A stretch of DNA of 51,263 bases, from the sequence record PZ452599.1, one strand, 5' to 3'. Position numbers and translations under genes: made by a program. The stretch is from a phage. The notes below the pieces were generated by a model. The model had not been told where the DNA came from, did not search any database, and worked only from the letters and a program-made list of their open reading frames with translations. Shown here piece by piece: positions 20,700 to 48,654 of this stretch (its first letter is position 1; each line of letters starts with the position of its first letter).

Positions 20700-20743
20700 A
20701 CTATACACGATCCGGCAAGCCGAGTTTAGCAAAAAGTGCTACT
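20700..20743 (-). promoter_or_regulatory. motif-type promoter (variant GTAGCACTTTTTGCTAAAC plus TATAGT) for lipoprotein operon
   Basis: Motif reverse-complemented on + strand at 20725-20743; -10-like hexamer 18-19 nt downstream on the - strand. Confidence 0.45.
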
Positions 20744-21112
20744 TGTTATTTTTTGTTTTCAGGTGTTATCGGATTTAAGACGGCGTAAATTTAGCGCAAA
20801 TTTTAACCAACATAAGAACAATAAATAATCAATAAAATAGGTATATACATATAAAATCAATAGTTTATTTATTTATGTATGTGTATTTGTTTTTTCTTGT
20901 TATCTGTGTTTCTTGTGGTTTTGGTTGTTTGTGGTGATTTTTCTTTCTGAGTATCTGTGTGTGCCATCATTCATGTGTATGTATATAATCCTGCGTATCT
21001 GAGAGAACAGAGGAACAAGAAAAATAACACATATTAATCATTAATTTACGTGTCAGATTTGTTTTCTTGTCATCTGAGAACGTTTAGAAAACAGAAAAAA
21101 ACAAAACAACTA

Positions 21113-21140
21113 TTGACTAAATCAACCAAATGGCTACAAT
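21113..21140 (+). promoter_or_regulatory. sigma70-like promoter (TTGACT, 16 nt spacer, TACAAT) for the recombination operon
   Basis: Hexamers at 21113-21118 and 21135-21140, about 30 nt upstream of the RBS of gene 21171; A-rich GAACAAGAAAAA box upstream. Confidence 0.55.
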
Positions 21141-21170
21141 GCACACACAAAGCAACGAGGAGCATTAAAG

Positions 21171-22226
21171 ATGAGTGATTTTAACGCCTATACTAGCGAA
21201 GAAATGAGCAATGAGCTTTATCATGATCCTAACGCGTGGACGGCTGAATACGTCAGCGGTTCCAGCCTGGCGGAGATTTACAGCACTTGCCCTGCGTACT
21301 GGAAGTACAAGCCTCGCCAGGAAACCAAAGCACTTGTTTTCGGTACGCAGTCGCATACCAATTTTGAAAGCAAGGAGTTATTCGAAAAAACATATCGCCG
21401 CGCACCGTCGCAGGATGATTTTAAAGATCTGATCACAAGTCAAACGGCGTTGGCCTCAAAGCTGAAATCTTTTGGCCTGAAAGGTACAACGGGTAAGCAA
21501 TACCCCGAATTGCTGGAAATGCTGTACAAGTGCGGTGAGGATCTCAATGTATGGTGGCTTATCGAAATGATGGCAGAATGCCAGGCCGCAGCGGAAGGCG
21601 TGCAGTTAATCGACGCGAAAGATTATGATGCCTGTGTAGCGATGCGGCGCGTACTTGAGGCAATACCTGAGCATAATGCTTGCATGAATAGCCCAACCGC
21701 GCAGCGTGAAATGTCAATATTCGGGATCATCAATGGCGTAAAAGTTAAAGTGCGCCTTGATCACGTTGACGTAAACAAGGATGTAAAGGCCACAATCATT
21801 AACGGTTACGACGAAAAAGGCCGACCTATTTATGAAGAAGTCATCTATCCAGAAGCTGTGATTATAACTGACTATAAAACAACGGTTAGCGCAAATCCGG
21901 TTGACTTCCAGCGTCTGGCTTACAATCACGGCTATTATCTCAAAATGGCTTTGCAACATGATTTATTCAAAAAGGCGTATCCAGACGAGGAAAGACCAGT
22001 AATTGTGAGATTGCTTGCTCAAGAGAAGAAAGAGCCTTACTTGCCGCTCGCATTCCGAATGAACATTGAGCAATTGAAGATCGGGCGTATCCAGTACATG
22101 AGCGTGATCAACAAGTTCAACGTTTGCCAACAGTTAGATGAATGGCCTTCGTATGCAAACGGACAACCAGAAATTGATCTTGATACTCCTGATTGGGTGC
22201 GCGCTCAATTCAGGCAGTATCTATAA
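21171..22226 (+). CDS. putative recombination exonuclease (PD-(D/E)XK superfamily)
   Basis: 351 aa; GAGGAG RBS; RLDHVD...IITDYKTT nuclease-like motifs; first gene after a sigma70-like promoter; upstream of Erf-like and SSB genes. Confidence 0.55.
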   Translation: MSDFNAYTSEEMSNELYHDPNAWTAEYVSGSSLAEIYSTCPAYWKYKPRQETKALVFGTQSHTNFESKELFEKTYRRAPSQDDFKDLITSQTALASKLKSFGLKGTTGKQYPELLEMLYKCGEDLNVWWLIEMMAECQAAAEGVQLIDAKDYDACVAMRRVLEAIPEHNACMNSPTAQREMSIFGIINGVKVKVRLDHVDVNKDVKATIINGYDEKGRPIYEEVIYPEAVIITDYKTTVSANPVDFQRLAYNHGYYLKMALQHDLFKKAYPDEERPVIVRLLAQEKKEPYLPLAFRMNIEQLKIGRIQYMSVINKFNVCQQLDEWPSYANGQPEIDLDTPDWVRAQFRQYL

Positions 22227-22301
22227 CAAACTAAACAAATAGCTAAACTTTTATAATGGTTGGTGATATAATTCGCCAACCAGATAACAGGAGAATGAGA
22301 A

Positions 22302-22559
22302 ATGACAGACAAAGACAATGCCACATTATTGCATTTAGAACGATTCATTGATCGAGTAACTATTGCAATGAAAGAATTTATTAAGCCGATGAACATTAAA
22401 GAGTCGGAAGAAATGAAGACTTACATCAAGGACGTGGTTGCATCCATTGACAACGTTATCCTTGTTGCAACGATGAGCAAGGGAAACAAAGAGCGCGAGA
22501 GGTTGGTTACTGAATCAACAGAAGAATTTATTAAAATGATTGAAAGCGAGAAGGAATAA
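22302..22559 (+). CDS. hypothetical protein
   Basis: 85 aa; AGGAG RBS 9 nt upstream. Confidence 0.5.
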   Translation: MTDKDNATLLHLERFIDRVTIAMKEFIKPMNIKESEEMKTYIKDVVASIDNVILVATMSKGNKERERLVTESTEEFIKMIESEKE

Positions 22560-22562
22560 GAA

Positions 22563-23216
22563 ATGAAATTATCCGATCAGTTTGACAAAGTTTTGCCAGC
22601 ATTGCACAAAGCGCGCAGCTTGTTTGTAAAGGTTAAAAAGGATCGCCAAAACAGCCATCTTAAAAACCGTTACGCTACGCTTGATTCAGTCCTGGATGCC
22701 ATTACCCCAGCATTGATGGATAATGGGCTTATGATCATGCAGGACGGCGAAAGAATTGATGTAAGCACATTGCGAGTTGAAACTACCGTCATGCACGTTT
22801 CGGGCCAATGGGTGAAATTCTATTTTGATATTCCGATCGTTAAAAACGACCCTCAAGGTGTAGGATCTGCTTTCACATACGGGCGTCGTTATTCTGCGGC
22901 TGCGGCCTTCGGGTTAAGCCAGGCTGACGATGACGCACAAATCGCAGTCAAAACAGTGAACGACTGGAAGCGAGATATTGAAAAATGCGAAAGCGTAGGA
23001 GAATTGCAAGAAGTCCTTAAAAACGCTTGGAAGTCAAGCGACGCGGCAAGCAAGCAAGTAATCCGCGACCACTATGAGAAGCGCAAGGCTGAAATTGAGA
23101 TAGGCGGCGCGCGCGGATTTAATCCGGCAAAGCCTAAAGAAAACCTTGCAAGTGATGCCGTTGACACTCCAAATAGCGAGAAAGTAAAATCACAAAGTAT
23201 CACTGACTTTGAATAA
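22563..23216 (+). CDS. Erf-like single-strand annealing protein
   Basis: 217 aa; [11 protein letters not shown] motif typical of ERF-family recombinases; adjacent to SSB. Confidence 0.6.
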
Positions 23217-23221
23217 TAAAC

Positions 23222-23243
23222 GGGGCGCTTGCGCCCCTTTTGT
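23222..23243 (+). terminator. intrinsic terminator / attenuator between Erf-like and ssb
   Basis: Hairpin GGGGCGC-TTG-CGCCCC followed by TTTT. Confidence 0.5.
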
Positions 23244-47320: not shown

Positions 47321-47358
47321 CACGAATTGCTAAACGCGGGGCGCAATGCCTCGCTATA
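47321..47358 (+). promoter_or_regulatory. variant motif (TAGCACGAATTGCTAAAC) followed by TATAAT
   Basis: Begins with kinase stop TAG; TATAAT at 47353-47358; upstream of gene 47391. Confidence 0.4.
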
Positions 47359-47390
47359 ATGCAAACACCAATCAACGAGAGGAAATCACA

Positions 47391-47771
47391 ATGGTTAACA
47401 TCAGAAAAATCCGCGTCGGCACTAAATTCTTAGTTACTTACGCAATTCCAGATAGCGGAATGAAGAAGGGCCAGATTGTTAAGGTTGATAGCAAAAGATT
47501 CGGAATCCCTGGTATCAATGGCTATCTAATCAATAGAGATCTTGGATTCGACGGCTTCGCTATCCGTGCGCTTGAGGGTATTGTTGCCACTCTTAAACGA
47601 ATCACTAATCATCGCGGCTGCCCAATCAAGACGATTAAAGCGCCAATAAATTACGGCAAACTGGATAATCGTCGAATCCGCCGCCTGGCGCGTAACGCGT
47701 TAAAATTCCGTGGCGTAGGCGATGATTTCTACTATGGATACAAGAGGATTGCGCGCAATGCTGGGAAATAA
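47391..47771 (+). CDS. hypothetical protein
   Basis: 126 aa from ATG 47391 (GAGAGG RBS), downstream of TATAAT at 47353-47358. Confidence 0.45.
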   Translation: MVNIRKIRVGTKFLVTYAIPDSGMKKGQIVKVDSKRFGIPGINGYLINRDLGFDGFAIRALEGIVATLKRITNHRGCPIKTIKAPINYGKLDNRRIRRLARNALKFRGVGDDFYYGYKRIARNAGK

Positions 47772-47870
47772 CAATAACGCAACGAATCCTAAGCCACCTT
47801 TTGATTTTCATTCCGCAATGATTGCGGTATTATCAATGCTACTTTTTCTTTATAGCATGAGGGCGCTACT

Positions 47871-48119
47871 ATGGTTTTTAACGCATTAAAACGACTGTTT
47901 AAGCCGGAATACCGGATCGTATTTTGCCGCGACTGTTCTACTTATCATGTGCAGCGACGCAGCTTAGGCGGCAATTGGCACTATGTTACAGATGACTTTT
48001 TCGGCATCATTGCCACTGAATTTAAGTATTACAGTGATGCTTATATGTACGTGAAGAAGCGCCACCGCTTACGCAAGTGTCGTTTTTCCGTGCTGATTCA
48101 CGTTAATGATTGTTACTGA
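47871..48119 (+). CDS. hypothetical Cys-containing basic protein
   Basis: 82 aa; GAGGG RBS; CRDC motif. Confidence 0.45.
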   Translation: MVFNALKRLFKPEYRIVFCRDCSTYHVQRRSLGGNWHYVTDDFFGIIATEFKYYSDAYMYVKKRHRLRKCRFSVLIHVNDCY

Positions 48120-48126
48120 GGTGAAA

Positions 48127-48309
48127 ATGAAAACTGGTATTATTATTCTTTTCCTGATCCTTTTCGGTAGCCATTTAACCATTAACTATGAGGGCATTAT
48201 GGCCTTTTGGGGCAACTTGATGGTTTTTGCCGCTGGTTCAATTACTGGCTACTCTGACGGGAAAAAGGACGGTGTTCGCAAGATGCTGATGGGACTTAAA
48301 CAAAAATAA
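48127..48309 (+). CDS. small membrane protein
   Basis: 60 aa from ATG 48127 (GAGGTG RBS); hydrophobic IIILFLILFG and LMVFAAGSITG segments. Confidence 0.45.
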   Translation: MKTGIIILFLILFGSHLTINYEGIMAFWGNLMVFAAGSITGYSDGKKDGVRKMLMGLKQK

Positions 48310-48320
48310 GGGGATCTGAA

Positions 48321-48611
48321 ATGGCAAACAAAACTTACCGCAAACTACTGGTTAACGCTTTTGAAAACATTGCGCAGTGTAACAAGTGGAACGACTCTAA
48401 ACACTCGCCAGTCACAATGAAGCGCGCCGGATTCAAAAATGCTCGTTCATGGGCGCGAGCTTTCGCAGCTTGCTATATGCCGGATGGTGGACTAGGAGCG
48501 ATGAACGATTTTTTGATCAACATGATAGAGGAAGCTGCGCGAGAGGATCGACCGCTGACACAGCGAGATTTTGACGACTTCGCGCGCGATGAGCTTTACT
48601 ATCTGAGCTAA
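48321..48611 (+). CDS. hypothetical protein
   Basis: 96 aa; AAGGGG RBS; stop followed by motif copy. Confidence 0.5.
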   Translation: MANKTYRKLLVNAFENIAQCNKWNDSKHSPVTMKRAGFKNARSWARAFAACYMPDGGLGAMNDFLINMIEEAAREDRPLTQRDFDDFARDELYYLS

Positions 48612-48654
48612 TAGCACTTTTTGTTAAAACTTCCGCAAGGGCATTTGATAAAGT
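48612..48654 (+). promoter_or_regulatory. motif-type promoter
   Basis: Motif 48612-48630; GATAAA-like -10 inside hairpin AAGGGCA...TGCCCTT; upstream of gene 48687. Confidence 0.45.

Follow-up and report, generated by a model that had tools for sequence, protein, structure and literature searches.

What function is served by the short, nearly identical repeats that recur between the genes of a T1-like phage? The question was addressed in the phage genome record PZ452599.1 (51,263 nt), which was analyzed in full and is called here the window; all positions are window coordinates. Over long stretches the window is about 97% identical to the Escherichia phages MikeNSara, tonijn, vB_EcoS-95 and FritzSarasin and, since these close relatives belong to Warwickvirus, the phage is a T1-like virulent siphovirus of this genus (Tempevirinae, Drexlerviridae). 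The large terminase gene opens the window, which looks like a whole genome: the structural genes occupy the plus strand from 1 to 19.5 kb and, beyond 19.5 kb, leftward and rightward blocks of small early, replication, recombination and lysis genes alternate. Our results indicate that the repeats are probably class II promoters read by the host activators Rob, MarA or SoxS (RamA in Klebsiella). The repeat itself would be a marbox, the asymmetric 20-bp site of these monomeric AraC/XylS activators with two helix-turn-helix (HTH) motifs.

A motif of the form AATAGCAC(nnn)TTG(n)TAAAAC was found 20 times in the window, with 0.02 copies expected by chance, and 20 copies were also obtained with the family consensus ATAGCACnnnTTGnTAAAA at up to two mismatches. 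An earlier description of this DNA, made without database searches (the sequence-only reading), had reported a family of this kind; all of its 15 copy positions were correct, the leftward numbers being the 5' ends of the minus-strand 21-mers. The implied excess over shuffled controls was also confirmed, with 17 matches to the 19-mer TAGCACTTTTTGTTAAAAC (up to three mismatches) versus 0.02 expected from 100 dinucleotide shuffles. Five copies were absent from that list: 1565 (+), 6190 (-), 9944 (-), 26064 (+) and 47316 (+). The family is not confined to 20700-48654, as had been thought, since four atypical copies lie in the late region.

The alignment of the copies anchored on the motif is gap-free. 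The complete layout, present in 16 of the 20, consists of a 21-mer (AATAGCACTTTTTGTTAAAAC), 18 nt of unrelated sequence after its final C (17 nt in two copies), a -10-like hexamer (CATAAT, TATAAT, TATATT, TACATT or TATAGT), 6 nt, the dinucleotide C-A, an A/C-rich leader (AUCGAAACGA...), a Shine-Dalgarno sequence and a start codon. The C-A falls at +30/+31 after the box and the start codon 18-49 nt beyond it, which gives the predicted length of the 5' untranslated region (UTR). The fixed distance to the -10 claimed by the sequence-only reading therefore holds in 16 of 20 copies here, and its figure of 22 nt from the TTG of the motif to the -10 is right. Two other claims stood only in part. The motif begins at the stop codon of the upstream gene in 13 of the 16 promoter-type copies, where the stop lies inside or abuts AATAG, and not in the rest; and 17 of the 20 copies are oriented with the local transcription unit, the exceptions being 6190 (-), 9944 (-) and 26064 (+), which are opposed to the surrounding late genes.

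The anatomy of the promoters was then described on a set of 77 copies from the window, T1, Rogue1 and KP36; the three other phages stand for three additional genera, and the last of them has a Klebsiella host. A hexamer was accepted as a -10 when it had A2, T6 and at least four of six matches to TATAAT, and the numbering was anchored on it as -12 to -7; positions are thus counted from the -10 and the transcription starts are predicted. The family, its register and its promoter features were computed directly. The gap between box and -10 was 18 nt in 55 of the 77 copies, 17 nt in four and 19 nt in seven, and a qualifying hexamer occurs at 1.9% of random positions, so the distance is kept at the exact offset across the four genomes as well. 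In these 55 promoters A-50, T-49, A-48, G-47, C-46, A-45 and C-44 are invariant or nearly so, followed by TTT, GAA or TAA at -43 to -41, conserved T-40, T-39 and G-38, T or C at -37, conserved T-36, A-35, A-34 and A-33, and then a-32 and c-31. No conservation was found from -30 to -15. Further downstream, G-14 is present in 46 of the 55 and T-15 in 21, the -10 consensus is T/C-A-T-A-A/G-T with invariant A-11 and T-7, and the predicted start is marked by C-1 (35/55) and A+1 (45/55). The -35 slot reads TAAAAC, with two of six matches to TTGACA. Judged by these elements, the repeat promoters combine a good -10 with the lack of a usable -35. The proposal of a promoter family was therefore upheld, with -10, G-14, C-A start and leader all in fixed register, and so was the lack of a canonical -35; that these promoters need a factor, as had also been suggested, is very probable.

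The motif does not change between Tunavirinae, Tempevirinae, Rogunavirinae and Webervirus, with E. coli or Klebsiella as host. In orthologous promoters the box and the -10 are kept and the spacer diverges, and the helicase promoter has TATTAT in all four phages. The centre triplet is linked to the variable base of TTGnTA, TTT going with T (25 copies) and GAA or TAA with C (20 copies), and both sub-types coexist in every genus examined. The window is almost wholly of the TTT/T sub-type; ten of its copies are identical over 21 bp, which suggests homogenization.

The box was compared with the marbox, which has been defined as the non-palindromic, oriented sequence 5'-gcannwwntgnnaaa-3' (Grainger laboratory, PMC12052159). 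Exact matches to GCAnnWWnTGnnAAA number 19 in the window and all of them are repeat copies, with 1.49 expected and a maximum of five in 100 shuffles. The same 15-mer was found 13-22 times in each of six further T1-like genomes (about 0.5 in shuffles), with 20 copies in T1, 19 in TLS, 14 in Rtp, 13 in Rogue1 and 14 in KP36; the genome of T7 has none. The repeat fits all 10 specified positions of the 15-mer, compared with nine of 10 for each of the host micF and mar boxes. Moreover, the positions that vary in the repeat are degenerate positions of the marbox and take the same bases, T33/A22 at position 10 (W) and T29/C25 at position 14 (Y). The repeat also matches 13 of the 14 positions of AYnGCACnnWnnRYYAAAYn, which we take to be the 20-mer consensus of the marbox. 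The family had been called phage-specific; instead, its motif is a consensus copy of a host marbox, set in the geometry of class II MarA/SoxS/Rob promoters such as micF.

In micF, the archetypal class II promoter, the 20-bp robbox/soxbox is composed of an A site, GCAC, and a B site, CAAA, that overlaps the -35, and it is centred at -41.5 (PMC9178005, PMC9638938). In the MG1655 genome the micF robbox, ACAGCACTGAATGTCAAAAC, is followed after exactly 18 nt by TAGAAT, a gap equal to that of the phage repeat. The repeat is identical to the micF box at 15 of 20 positions and to the mar box (ATGCCACGTTTTGCTAAATC) at 15-17 of 20, compared with 10 of 20 between these two host boxes. In the cryo-electron microscopy structure of Rob, RNA polymerase and micF, Rob reads -47G, -45A, -38G, -37T and the -35/-34 pairs (PMC9178005). 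With the repeat numbering derived independently, from the -10, the same positions carry G-47, A-45 and G-38 (each 55/55), a pyrimidine at -37, and A-35 and A-34 (each 54/55). The orientation is also that of micF, forward with GCAC distal and AAA proximal, in all 16 window copies that have a -10 and a gene and in 55 of 55 promoters of the four genera. Genome-wide in Salmonella, forward sites cluster near -41, and the class II promoters have a canonical -10 and start and a -35 that is not recognizable (mean of 1.9 matches; PMC10268841). In their predicted features the repeat promoters fit this description: the marbox sequence, the forward orientation, the -41/-41.5 position and a -10 without a good -35, which define class II members of the mar/sox/rob group, were all found. 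The gene sodA was considered as a second host case of the 18-bp rule and was not used, its accepted marbox not being identifiable with confidence.

The likeness to micF and other class II promoters thus covers a 20-bp asymmetric forward box at about -50 to -31, centred near -41, with GCAC distal and YAAA proximal, ending 18 bp before a canonical -10 with its start, with no usable -35 and with identical Rob-contact positions. There are also differences. The phage sites lie on a virulent genome at a density of 13-22 per 50 kb, they are closer to the consensus than the host sites, their A-48, T-40 and T-39 are additionally invariant, and their 5' AATAG doubles as the stop codon of the upstream gene. 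The micF promoter has no hairpin, but in most phage promoters a GC-rich one occupies the spacer or surrounds the -10, and the role of the activator is that of a candidate.

From these features, with the marbox match and the micF geometry likewise computed directly, we infer binding by Rob, MarA, SoxS or RamA and a dependence of transcription on those activators. In 16 of the 20 copies a putative forward box at -50 to -31 would cover the -35 position, 18 bp upstream of a sigma-70 -10. One activator molecule would bind both GCAC (A site) and YTAAA (B site), displace sigma-70 region 4 from the -35 position and contact region 4 together with the C-terminal domain of the polymerase alpha subunit (alpha-CTD), thus recruiting the host RNA polymerase to a -10-only promoter. 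In the class II mechanism described for the host, a single box-bound activator likewise moves region 4, holds region 4 and the alpha-CTD, and delivers the polymerase (PMC9178005, PMC9638938). Most early, replication and lysis units (16 here) would then be driven by the host RNA polymerase and a host stress/resistance activator.

MarA, SoxS, Rob and RamA bind the same box through nearly indistinguishable motifs, RamA being found in Klebsiella, Salmonella and Enterobacter (PMC12052159, PMC10268841). The first candidate would be Rob, because it is made constitutively; it also has the highest affinity, yet it is largely sequestered without inducers (PMC2787020, PMC10268841). Also by direct computation, no homologue of MarA, SoxS or Rob was found in the six-frame open reading frames (ORFs) of the four phage genomes, each searched with a hidden Markov model made from the three activators and, for every one of them, with phmmer (best E 0.11). 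The box is constant, the phage proteins are divergent and the hosts share the Mar/Sox/Rob/Ram activators, and a host reader is therefore indicated; the invariance of the box across hosts would fit a conserved host reader.

The repeat family itself is already known. In the 2024 re-annotation of phage TLS, 18 intergenic direct repeats of 21 nt with the consensus aaATAGCACnnnTTGnTAAAA were described, which point the way transcription runs, precede start codons by about 76 nt and are shared with T1, Rtp and Rogue1; sigma-70-like promoters in the TLS genome numbered only three (PMC11447400). As possible roles its authors named stoperators, enhancer sites or UP elements, and they treated what the repeat does as an open question for T1-like phages (PMC11447400). 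The window repeat is the same element, with the same consensus, orientation and 'T', 'G' and 'A' sub-types. The features used for the TLS repeats were found here as well: 20 copies (at most two mismatches), intergenic, 17 of the 20 co-oriented, and 21 + 30 + 18-49 nt from box start to ATG. The two descriptions differ in that the TTT/T sub-type dominates in the window, and in that the TLS paper draws no link to the marbox or to a fixed -10 register. Since the repeat was published for TLS in 2024, the observation itself is not new; the marbox identification is new as far as the accessible literature shows.

Several points weigh against a class II reading by the host activators. The literature search gave no transcription-start, binding or genetic data for T1-like phages and no paper tying the marbox, Rob, MarA or SoxS to them; one RNA-seq paper that surfaced in it concerned a T5-like phage. 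A single-gene screen of the Keio collection with the T1-like phage LL5 found the lipopolysaccharide-core genes, tolC, secB and ppiB to be required and did not recover rob, marA or soxS (PMC7229145). Therefore no single activator is essential, a result as compatible with redundancy among three paralogues as with dispensability. Most Rob is sequestered and little MarA or SoxS is present when inducers are absent (PMC2787020), and yet T1-like phages grow fast in plain broth, in unstressed cultures. Two T1-like records, labelled Vibrio phage Vc1 and Pseudomonas phage Motto (GC 44-45%), also contain these promoters, with 12 exact marbox 15-mers in Vc1 and 16 in 30 kb of Motto; if they are correctly labelled, the reader cannot be the trio of enterobacterial activators. 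T1-like genomes with the same marbox promoters have also been deposited as Campylobacter phages (GC about 45%). Either there is doubt about the host labels of the Vc1, Motto and Campylobacter records, or non-enteric hosts, too, can read the box. Furthermore, the repeat is tighter than a generic marbox, A-48, T-40 and T-39 also being invariant, and an additional or different reader is therefore possible. Finally, a -10 at the proper spacing is missing from four copies, so that the box serves at least one purpose besides class II activation.

It is rather unlikely that the same promoters are read instead by a phage-encoded factor, either the HTH protein 27138-27614 or a small early protein. Such a reader would first be expressed from the few canonical sigma-70 promoters, and in turn it would activate the repeat promoters as 'delayed-early' ones, in the manner of MotA/AsiA, the resemblance to the marbox being convergence or mimicry. 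Canonical promoters that could express an activator first are available: candidates are few in the window, and two of them, 21113-21140 and 41832-41860 (TTGACA-17-GATAAT, the strongest), serve units other than the repeat-driven ones. With a phage factor, growth would be accounted for in unstressed cells and, provided that the Vibrio and Pseudomonas labels are correct, in non-enteric hosts, and the negative Keio result fits as well. The HTH gene is also kept between the primase and helicase genes in every family member examined, and its promoter overlaps the -10 of the helicase repeat promoter while its 5' UTR holds the box, an arrangement that looks like a regulatory switch.

The proteins themselves argue in the opposite direction. 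The HTH protein (27138-27614, -) has a single HTH of the Cro/YdaS type, whereas a 20-bp asymmetric box is of the type read by two different HTHs; the protein is 50-64% identical across genera, and positions 2, 6 and 7 of its recognition helix vary between them, whereas the box does not. For the same reason, an analysis of covariation between the HTH and the box across genera was not possible. The first gene behind the canonical promoter 41832-41860 encodes a DUF7174 protein, a small early candidate that is only 19-31% identical across the family. Neither the HTH nor the DUF7174 family has profile similarity to MarA, SoxS or Rob (hhalign probability 0.1-0.3%). In addition, an unrelated site is very unlikely to agree by chance with all 10 specified marbox positions while also having the correct orientation and the spacing of micF; the sequence by itself gives about 4e-6 per register. 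The HTH protein, which the sequence-only reading had put forward as a reader, is thus a poor candidate.

The candidate minus-strand promoter of the HTH gene (27614 down to 27138) consists of TTTAAA at 27693-27688, 17 nt, and TATAAT at 27670-27665, the latter overlapping the -10 of the helicase marbox promoter (27664-27669). About 13 nt separate the box from the start codon of the HTH gene, and the same is true of T1, Rogue1 and KP36. Two stretches of this regulator are better conserved among its homologues than the recognition helix: at the N-terminus a basic, invariant motif, DKRxxNGNNGxxRxxDxKxR, and at the C-terminus a block that contains Cys, FRAxxxRxDxxFDxNGK...RC.

Among the closest known systems are the middle promoters of T4. 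The MotA box of T4, (a/t)(a/t)(a/t)TGCTTtA, is centred at -30 and read by a phage protein, and AsiA remodels sigma-70 region 4. T4 middle promoters resemble the repeat promoters in using the host sigma-70 polymerase, a normal -10 and an activator box in place of the -35, and in being dispersed before early and middle genes. Unlike the MotA box, the phage repeat ends at -31, has another sequence and matches a host activator site. A MotA-dependent middle promoter was rejected, as no MotA box is present at -35 to -26 and the spacer is unconserved there; neither MotA nor AsiA was seen in Pfam and PHROG scans of those early genes that were scanned.

It is improbable that the promoters need no factor at all. 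On such an account the host RNA polymerase would use the -10 and G-14, with the T-tract/A-tract of the box acting in an UP-like manner or as a substitute for the -35, and any binding of MarA or Rob would be incidental or modulatory. The promoters are in part of the extended -10 type, as G-14 occurs in 46 of 55 and TG in some; for micF and sodA, polymerase is believed to bind even when no activator is present (PMC2787020), and the Keio result and growth in unstressed cells would fit as well. However, T-15 occurs in only 21 of 55, the -35 slot has two of six matches, and UP-like non-specific contacts would hardly explain 16 bases invariant family-wide. The best-conserved part, ATAGCAC at -50 to -44, is not an A/T-tract and lies outside the logic of an alpha-CTD proximal subsite. 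The UP element to which the sequence-only reading had likened the T-tract/A-tract was rejected: UP elements are A/T-rich alpha-CTD sites at -59 to -38, upstream of a -35, and the repeat, at -51 to -31, fills the -35 slot and is best conserved at its GCAC.

That the repeats are mainly operators ('stoperators') or recombination boundaries, their promoter position being secondary, is very unlikely. A protein bound at such operators would block transcription and shut off the early genes; as boundaries, the repeats would supply short homologies for cassette shuffling. Stoperators were among the proposals of the TLS authors (PMC11447400), four copies lack a properly spaced -10, the ten copies identical over 21 bp suggest homogenization, and several breakpoints of homology to close relatives fall on repeats. 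Homology to FritzSarasin ends at 39480 and resumes at 39970, and therefore a whole cassette, 39484-39968, between the repeats at 39463 and 39969, has been swapped, being replaced precisely by an unrelated one in FritzSarasin. Another breakpoint with FritzSarasin, at 42595, lies near the repeat promoter 42609, and homology to both MikeNSara and FritzSarasin resumes exactly at 45814, the first position of a repeat promoter. As the breaks in homology occur at repeat copies, the repeats serve as cassette-exchange boundaries between close relatives. Nevertheless, since the phage encodes RecE and Erf, any dispersed 21-bp identity is expected to give rise to recombination as a by-product, and an immunity repressor is absent from a strictly lytic phage. 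Nor does either model predict that, in 55 of 77 copies across the four genera, a -10 and a C-A start follow in a rigid register of 18 bp. The stoperators of mycobacteriophage L5 are similar, since there too some 20-30 short, asymmetric sites follow the direction of transcription and occupy narrow gaps between genes; they differ in being bound by the immunity repressor, in blocking elongation and in having no fixed relation to a -10, whereas the window phage is virulent and its sites stand in promoter register.

The remaining candidates were rejected. A sigma-54 promoter (TGGCAC-N5-TTGCW) is not compatible with AGCAC in place of GGCAC, with the lack of GG/GC doublets 10 bp apart, with a TTG that follows after 3 nt instead of 5 and is itself followed by T/C-T-A instead of C-W, or with the sigma-70-type -10 downstream. 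The sigma-32 '-10' (CCCCAT) seen just before some starts lacks conservation and is nothing more than the 3' arm of certain hairpins. Taking TTGnTA as a -35 gives a spacer of 22 bp, with no hexamer 17 bp downstream. A palindrome for a dimeric HTH protein, TAGCA-N5-TGCTA centred at -42, is only partially symmetric, its left half being invariant and its right half not, and the marbox explains the sequence better.

Additionally, the promoters were analyzed for secondary structure. The stretch from -30 to +6 folds at -8 kcal/mol or below in 40 of the 55 promoters, versus 14% of random 36-mers, with a mean z-score of -2.7. Two classes of hairpin were distinguished. Class 1 (13 promoters) has a stem that takes up the spacer as far as about -12, with the T-rich -10 region coming next, and these hairpins are annotated as rho-independent terminators in the T1 and KP36 records. 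In class 2 (27 promoters) the arms flank the -10 and no U-tract is present. The sense RNA folds better than the antisense (-10.7 versus -8.6 kcal/mol; paired p = 2.6e-5; 63 G·U pairs), which suggests that the hairpins act in read-through transcripts from upstream and occupy the only promoter positions that are free of constraint. Examples of GC-rich hairpins are 31206-31224, 42630-42648, 45842-45864, 48637-48660 and 36582-36561 (-). A comparable system is the 'promoter-early stem-loop' (PeSL), a mobile regulatory cassette of T4-type phages (PMC2839356). PeSLs are likewise dispersed, near-identical intergenic cassettes of promoter and stem-loop found at insertion and replacement boundaries between close relatives; unlike a PeSL, in which an ordinary sigma-70 early promoter is followed by a stem-loop, the conserved part of the repeat is an activator box and the hairpin lies inside the promoter.

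If the repeats are indeed marboxes read by the host activators, broader consequences can be proposed, more tentatively. Throughout Drexlerviridae, including the Klebsiella Webervirus phages used in therapy, nearly all early, replication and lysis transcription may be wired by way of consensus class II marboxes to the host mar/sox/rob/ram regulators, so as to be tuned by stress and to act as a marbox sponge, a proposition that we regard as possible and somewhat doubtful. Phage expression would be tuned by bile salts, salicylate, oxidants and antibiotic stress and be strongest in marR, ramR and soxR multidrug-resistant mutants, and hundreds of replicating genomes with some 20 better-than-host marboxes each would form a sponge, stripping activators from efflux and stress promoters. 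A lytic family would then depend on, or exploit, the clinical multidrug-resistance activators MarA, SoxS, Rob and RamA, with a bearing on phage-antibiotic synergy and on the choice of T1-like or Webervirus phages against marR/ramR mutants. The same arrangement would help to explain efficient infection with almost no canonical promoters, and it would offer compact, very strong marbox promoters for synthetic biology. Were the reader phage-encoded after all, that protein would be a new mimic of MarA specificity. In any case, the class II marbox reading turns the open question of the TLS paper (PMC11447400) into a few simple experiments.

The 16 promoter-type copies and the four atypical ones are collected in the table.

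Predicted repeat promoters and atypical repeat copies in the window. Gene starts are start codons; the predicted starts on the minus strand include A39432 and A41242.
Copy	Span (strand)	Box	-10 element	Predicted start	Gene start	Remarks
Helicase promoter	27625..27676 (+)	CATAGCATTTTTTGTTAAAAC, 27625-27645	TATTAT 27664-27669	~27676	27702	
Dam methylase promoter	30114..30165 (+)	TAG in box = stop codon of ORF 29699-30118	CATAAT 30153-30158		30199	Class 1 hairpin in spacer
Promoter	31185..31236 (+)		CATAAT 31224-31229	A31236	31262	Class 1 hairpin
Promoter	42609..42660 (+)		TGG, then CATAAT 42648-42653	A42660	42686	
Promoter	43072..43123 (+)		CATAAT 43111-43116		43172	
Promoter	44290..44341 (+)		TATAAT 44328-44333 (17-nt gap)		44364	Hairpin around -10
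Promoter	45814..45865 (+)		TATAGT 45853-45858	A45865	45890	Class 2 hairpin
Promoter	47316..47367 (+)	'G' variant, AATAGCACGAATTGCTAAACG	TATAAT 47355-47360		47391	
Promoter	48610..48661 (+)		TAAAGT 48649-48654		48687	Class 2 hairpin
Promoter	20692..20743 (-)	Variant AGTAGCACTTTTTGCTAAACT	TATAGT 20705-20700 (17-nt gap)		20674	Leftward Cor-like/small-gene cluster
Promoter	34397..34448 (-)		TATATT 34409-34404		34367	Class 1 hairpin
DUF3987 helicase promoter	36559..36610 (-)	TTGACA replaces TTGTTA	TAAAAT 36571-36566		36537	Class 2 hairpin
Promoter	37233..37284 (-)		TGG, then CATAAT 37245-37240		37210	
Promoter	39432..39483 (-)		TATATT 39444-39439		~39407	
Promoter	39938..39989 (-)		TACATT 39950-39945		39911	
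Promoter	41242..41293 (-)		TACATT 41254-41249		41214	
Atypical copy	9944-9964 (-), element 9913..9964					Opposed to late genes, just upstream of tail-chaperone start 9978
Atypical copy	6190..6210 (-)		Weak (TATTAG)			Between ORF 5383-6165 and major capsid gene (6256); adjoins terminator
Atypical copy	26064..26084 (+)	AATAGCACTTTTTGCTAATGA	None at expected distance			Between primase stop and tail-fibre start, opposed to both
Atypical copy	1565..1585 (+)	AATAGCACTAATTGCTAAAAA	None at 18-nt distance; TATAAT after 4 nt			At TerL stop; terminator follows, ahead of portal gene

Three of the atypical copies (6190, 9944 and 26064) are opposed to late genes and stand beside terminators, upstream of the capsid, tail-chaperone and tail-fibre genes, respectively. 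T1 has copies at the homologous places, 15086 (-) for 6190 (-), 18850 (-) for 9944 (-) and 34902 (+) for 26064 (+), and the positions of the reversed late copies are therefore conserved. Their reading as class I sites (backward, at -62/-72) was rejected, as there is no room for a -35 and a -10 before the late-gene start codons. An extended -10, TGaTAGATT (9925-9920), accompanies the copy 9944 (-), from which a short transcript would run into the bidirectional terminator 9882-9904. The -10 of this copy abuts a candidate rightward promoter for the tail chaperone (TTGCGC 9890-9895, 17 nt, TAAAAT 9913-9918), and on their predicted positions the two promoters look mutually exclusive.

Other features of the window were observed outside the repeats. 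The N-terminal HTH of the metallophosphoesterase encoded at 31768-32883 (+), a conserved 'DNA repair exonuclease', resembles sigma-70 region 4 and HTH_23/HTH_28, but weakly and below threshold (E about 0.002-0.02). Moreover, two large AT-rich intergenic regions have in common a homologous segment of about 113 bp, at 20817-20925 and 41530-41638 (74% identity, E 2e-11), with one of the few canonical sigma-70 promoters (21113-21140 and 41832-41860) located 200-300 bp downstream of each copy. Words of the TGTTATC type are enriched in these two regions, which could be an origin or a regulatory region.

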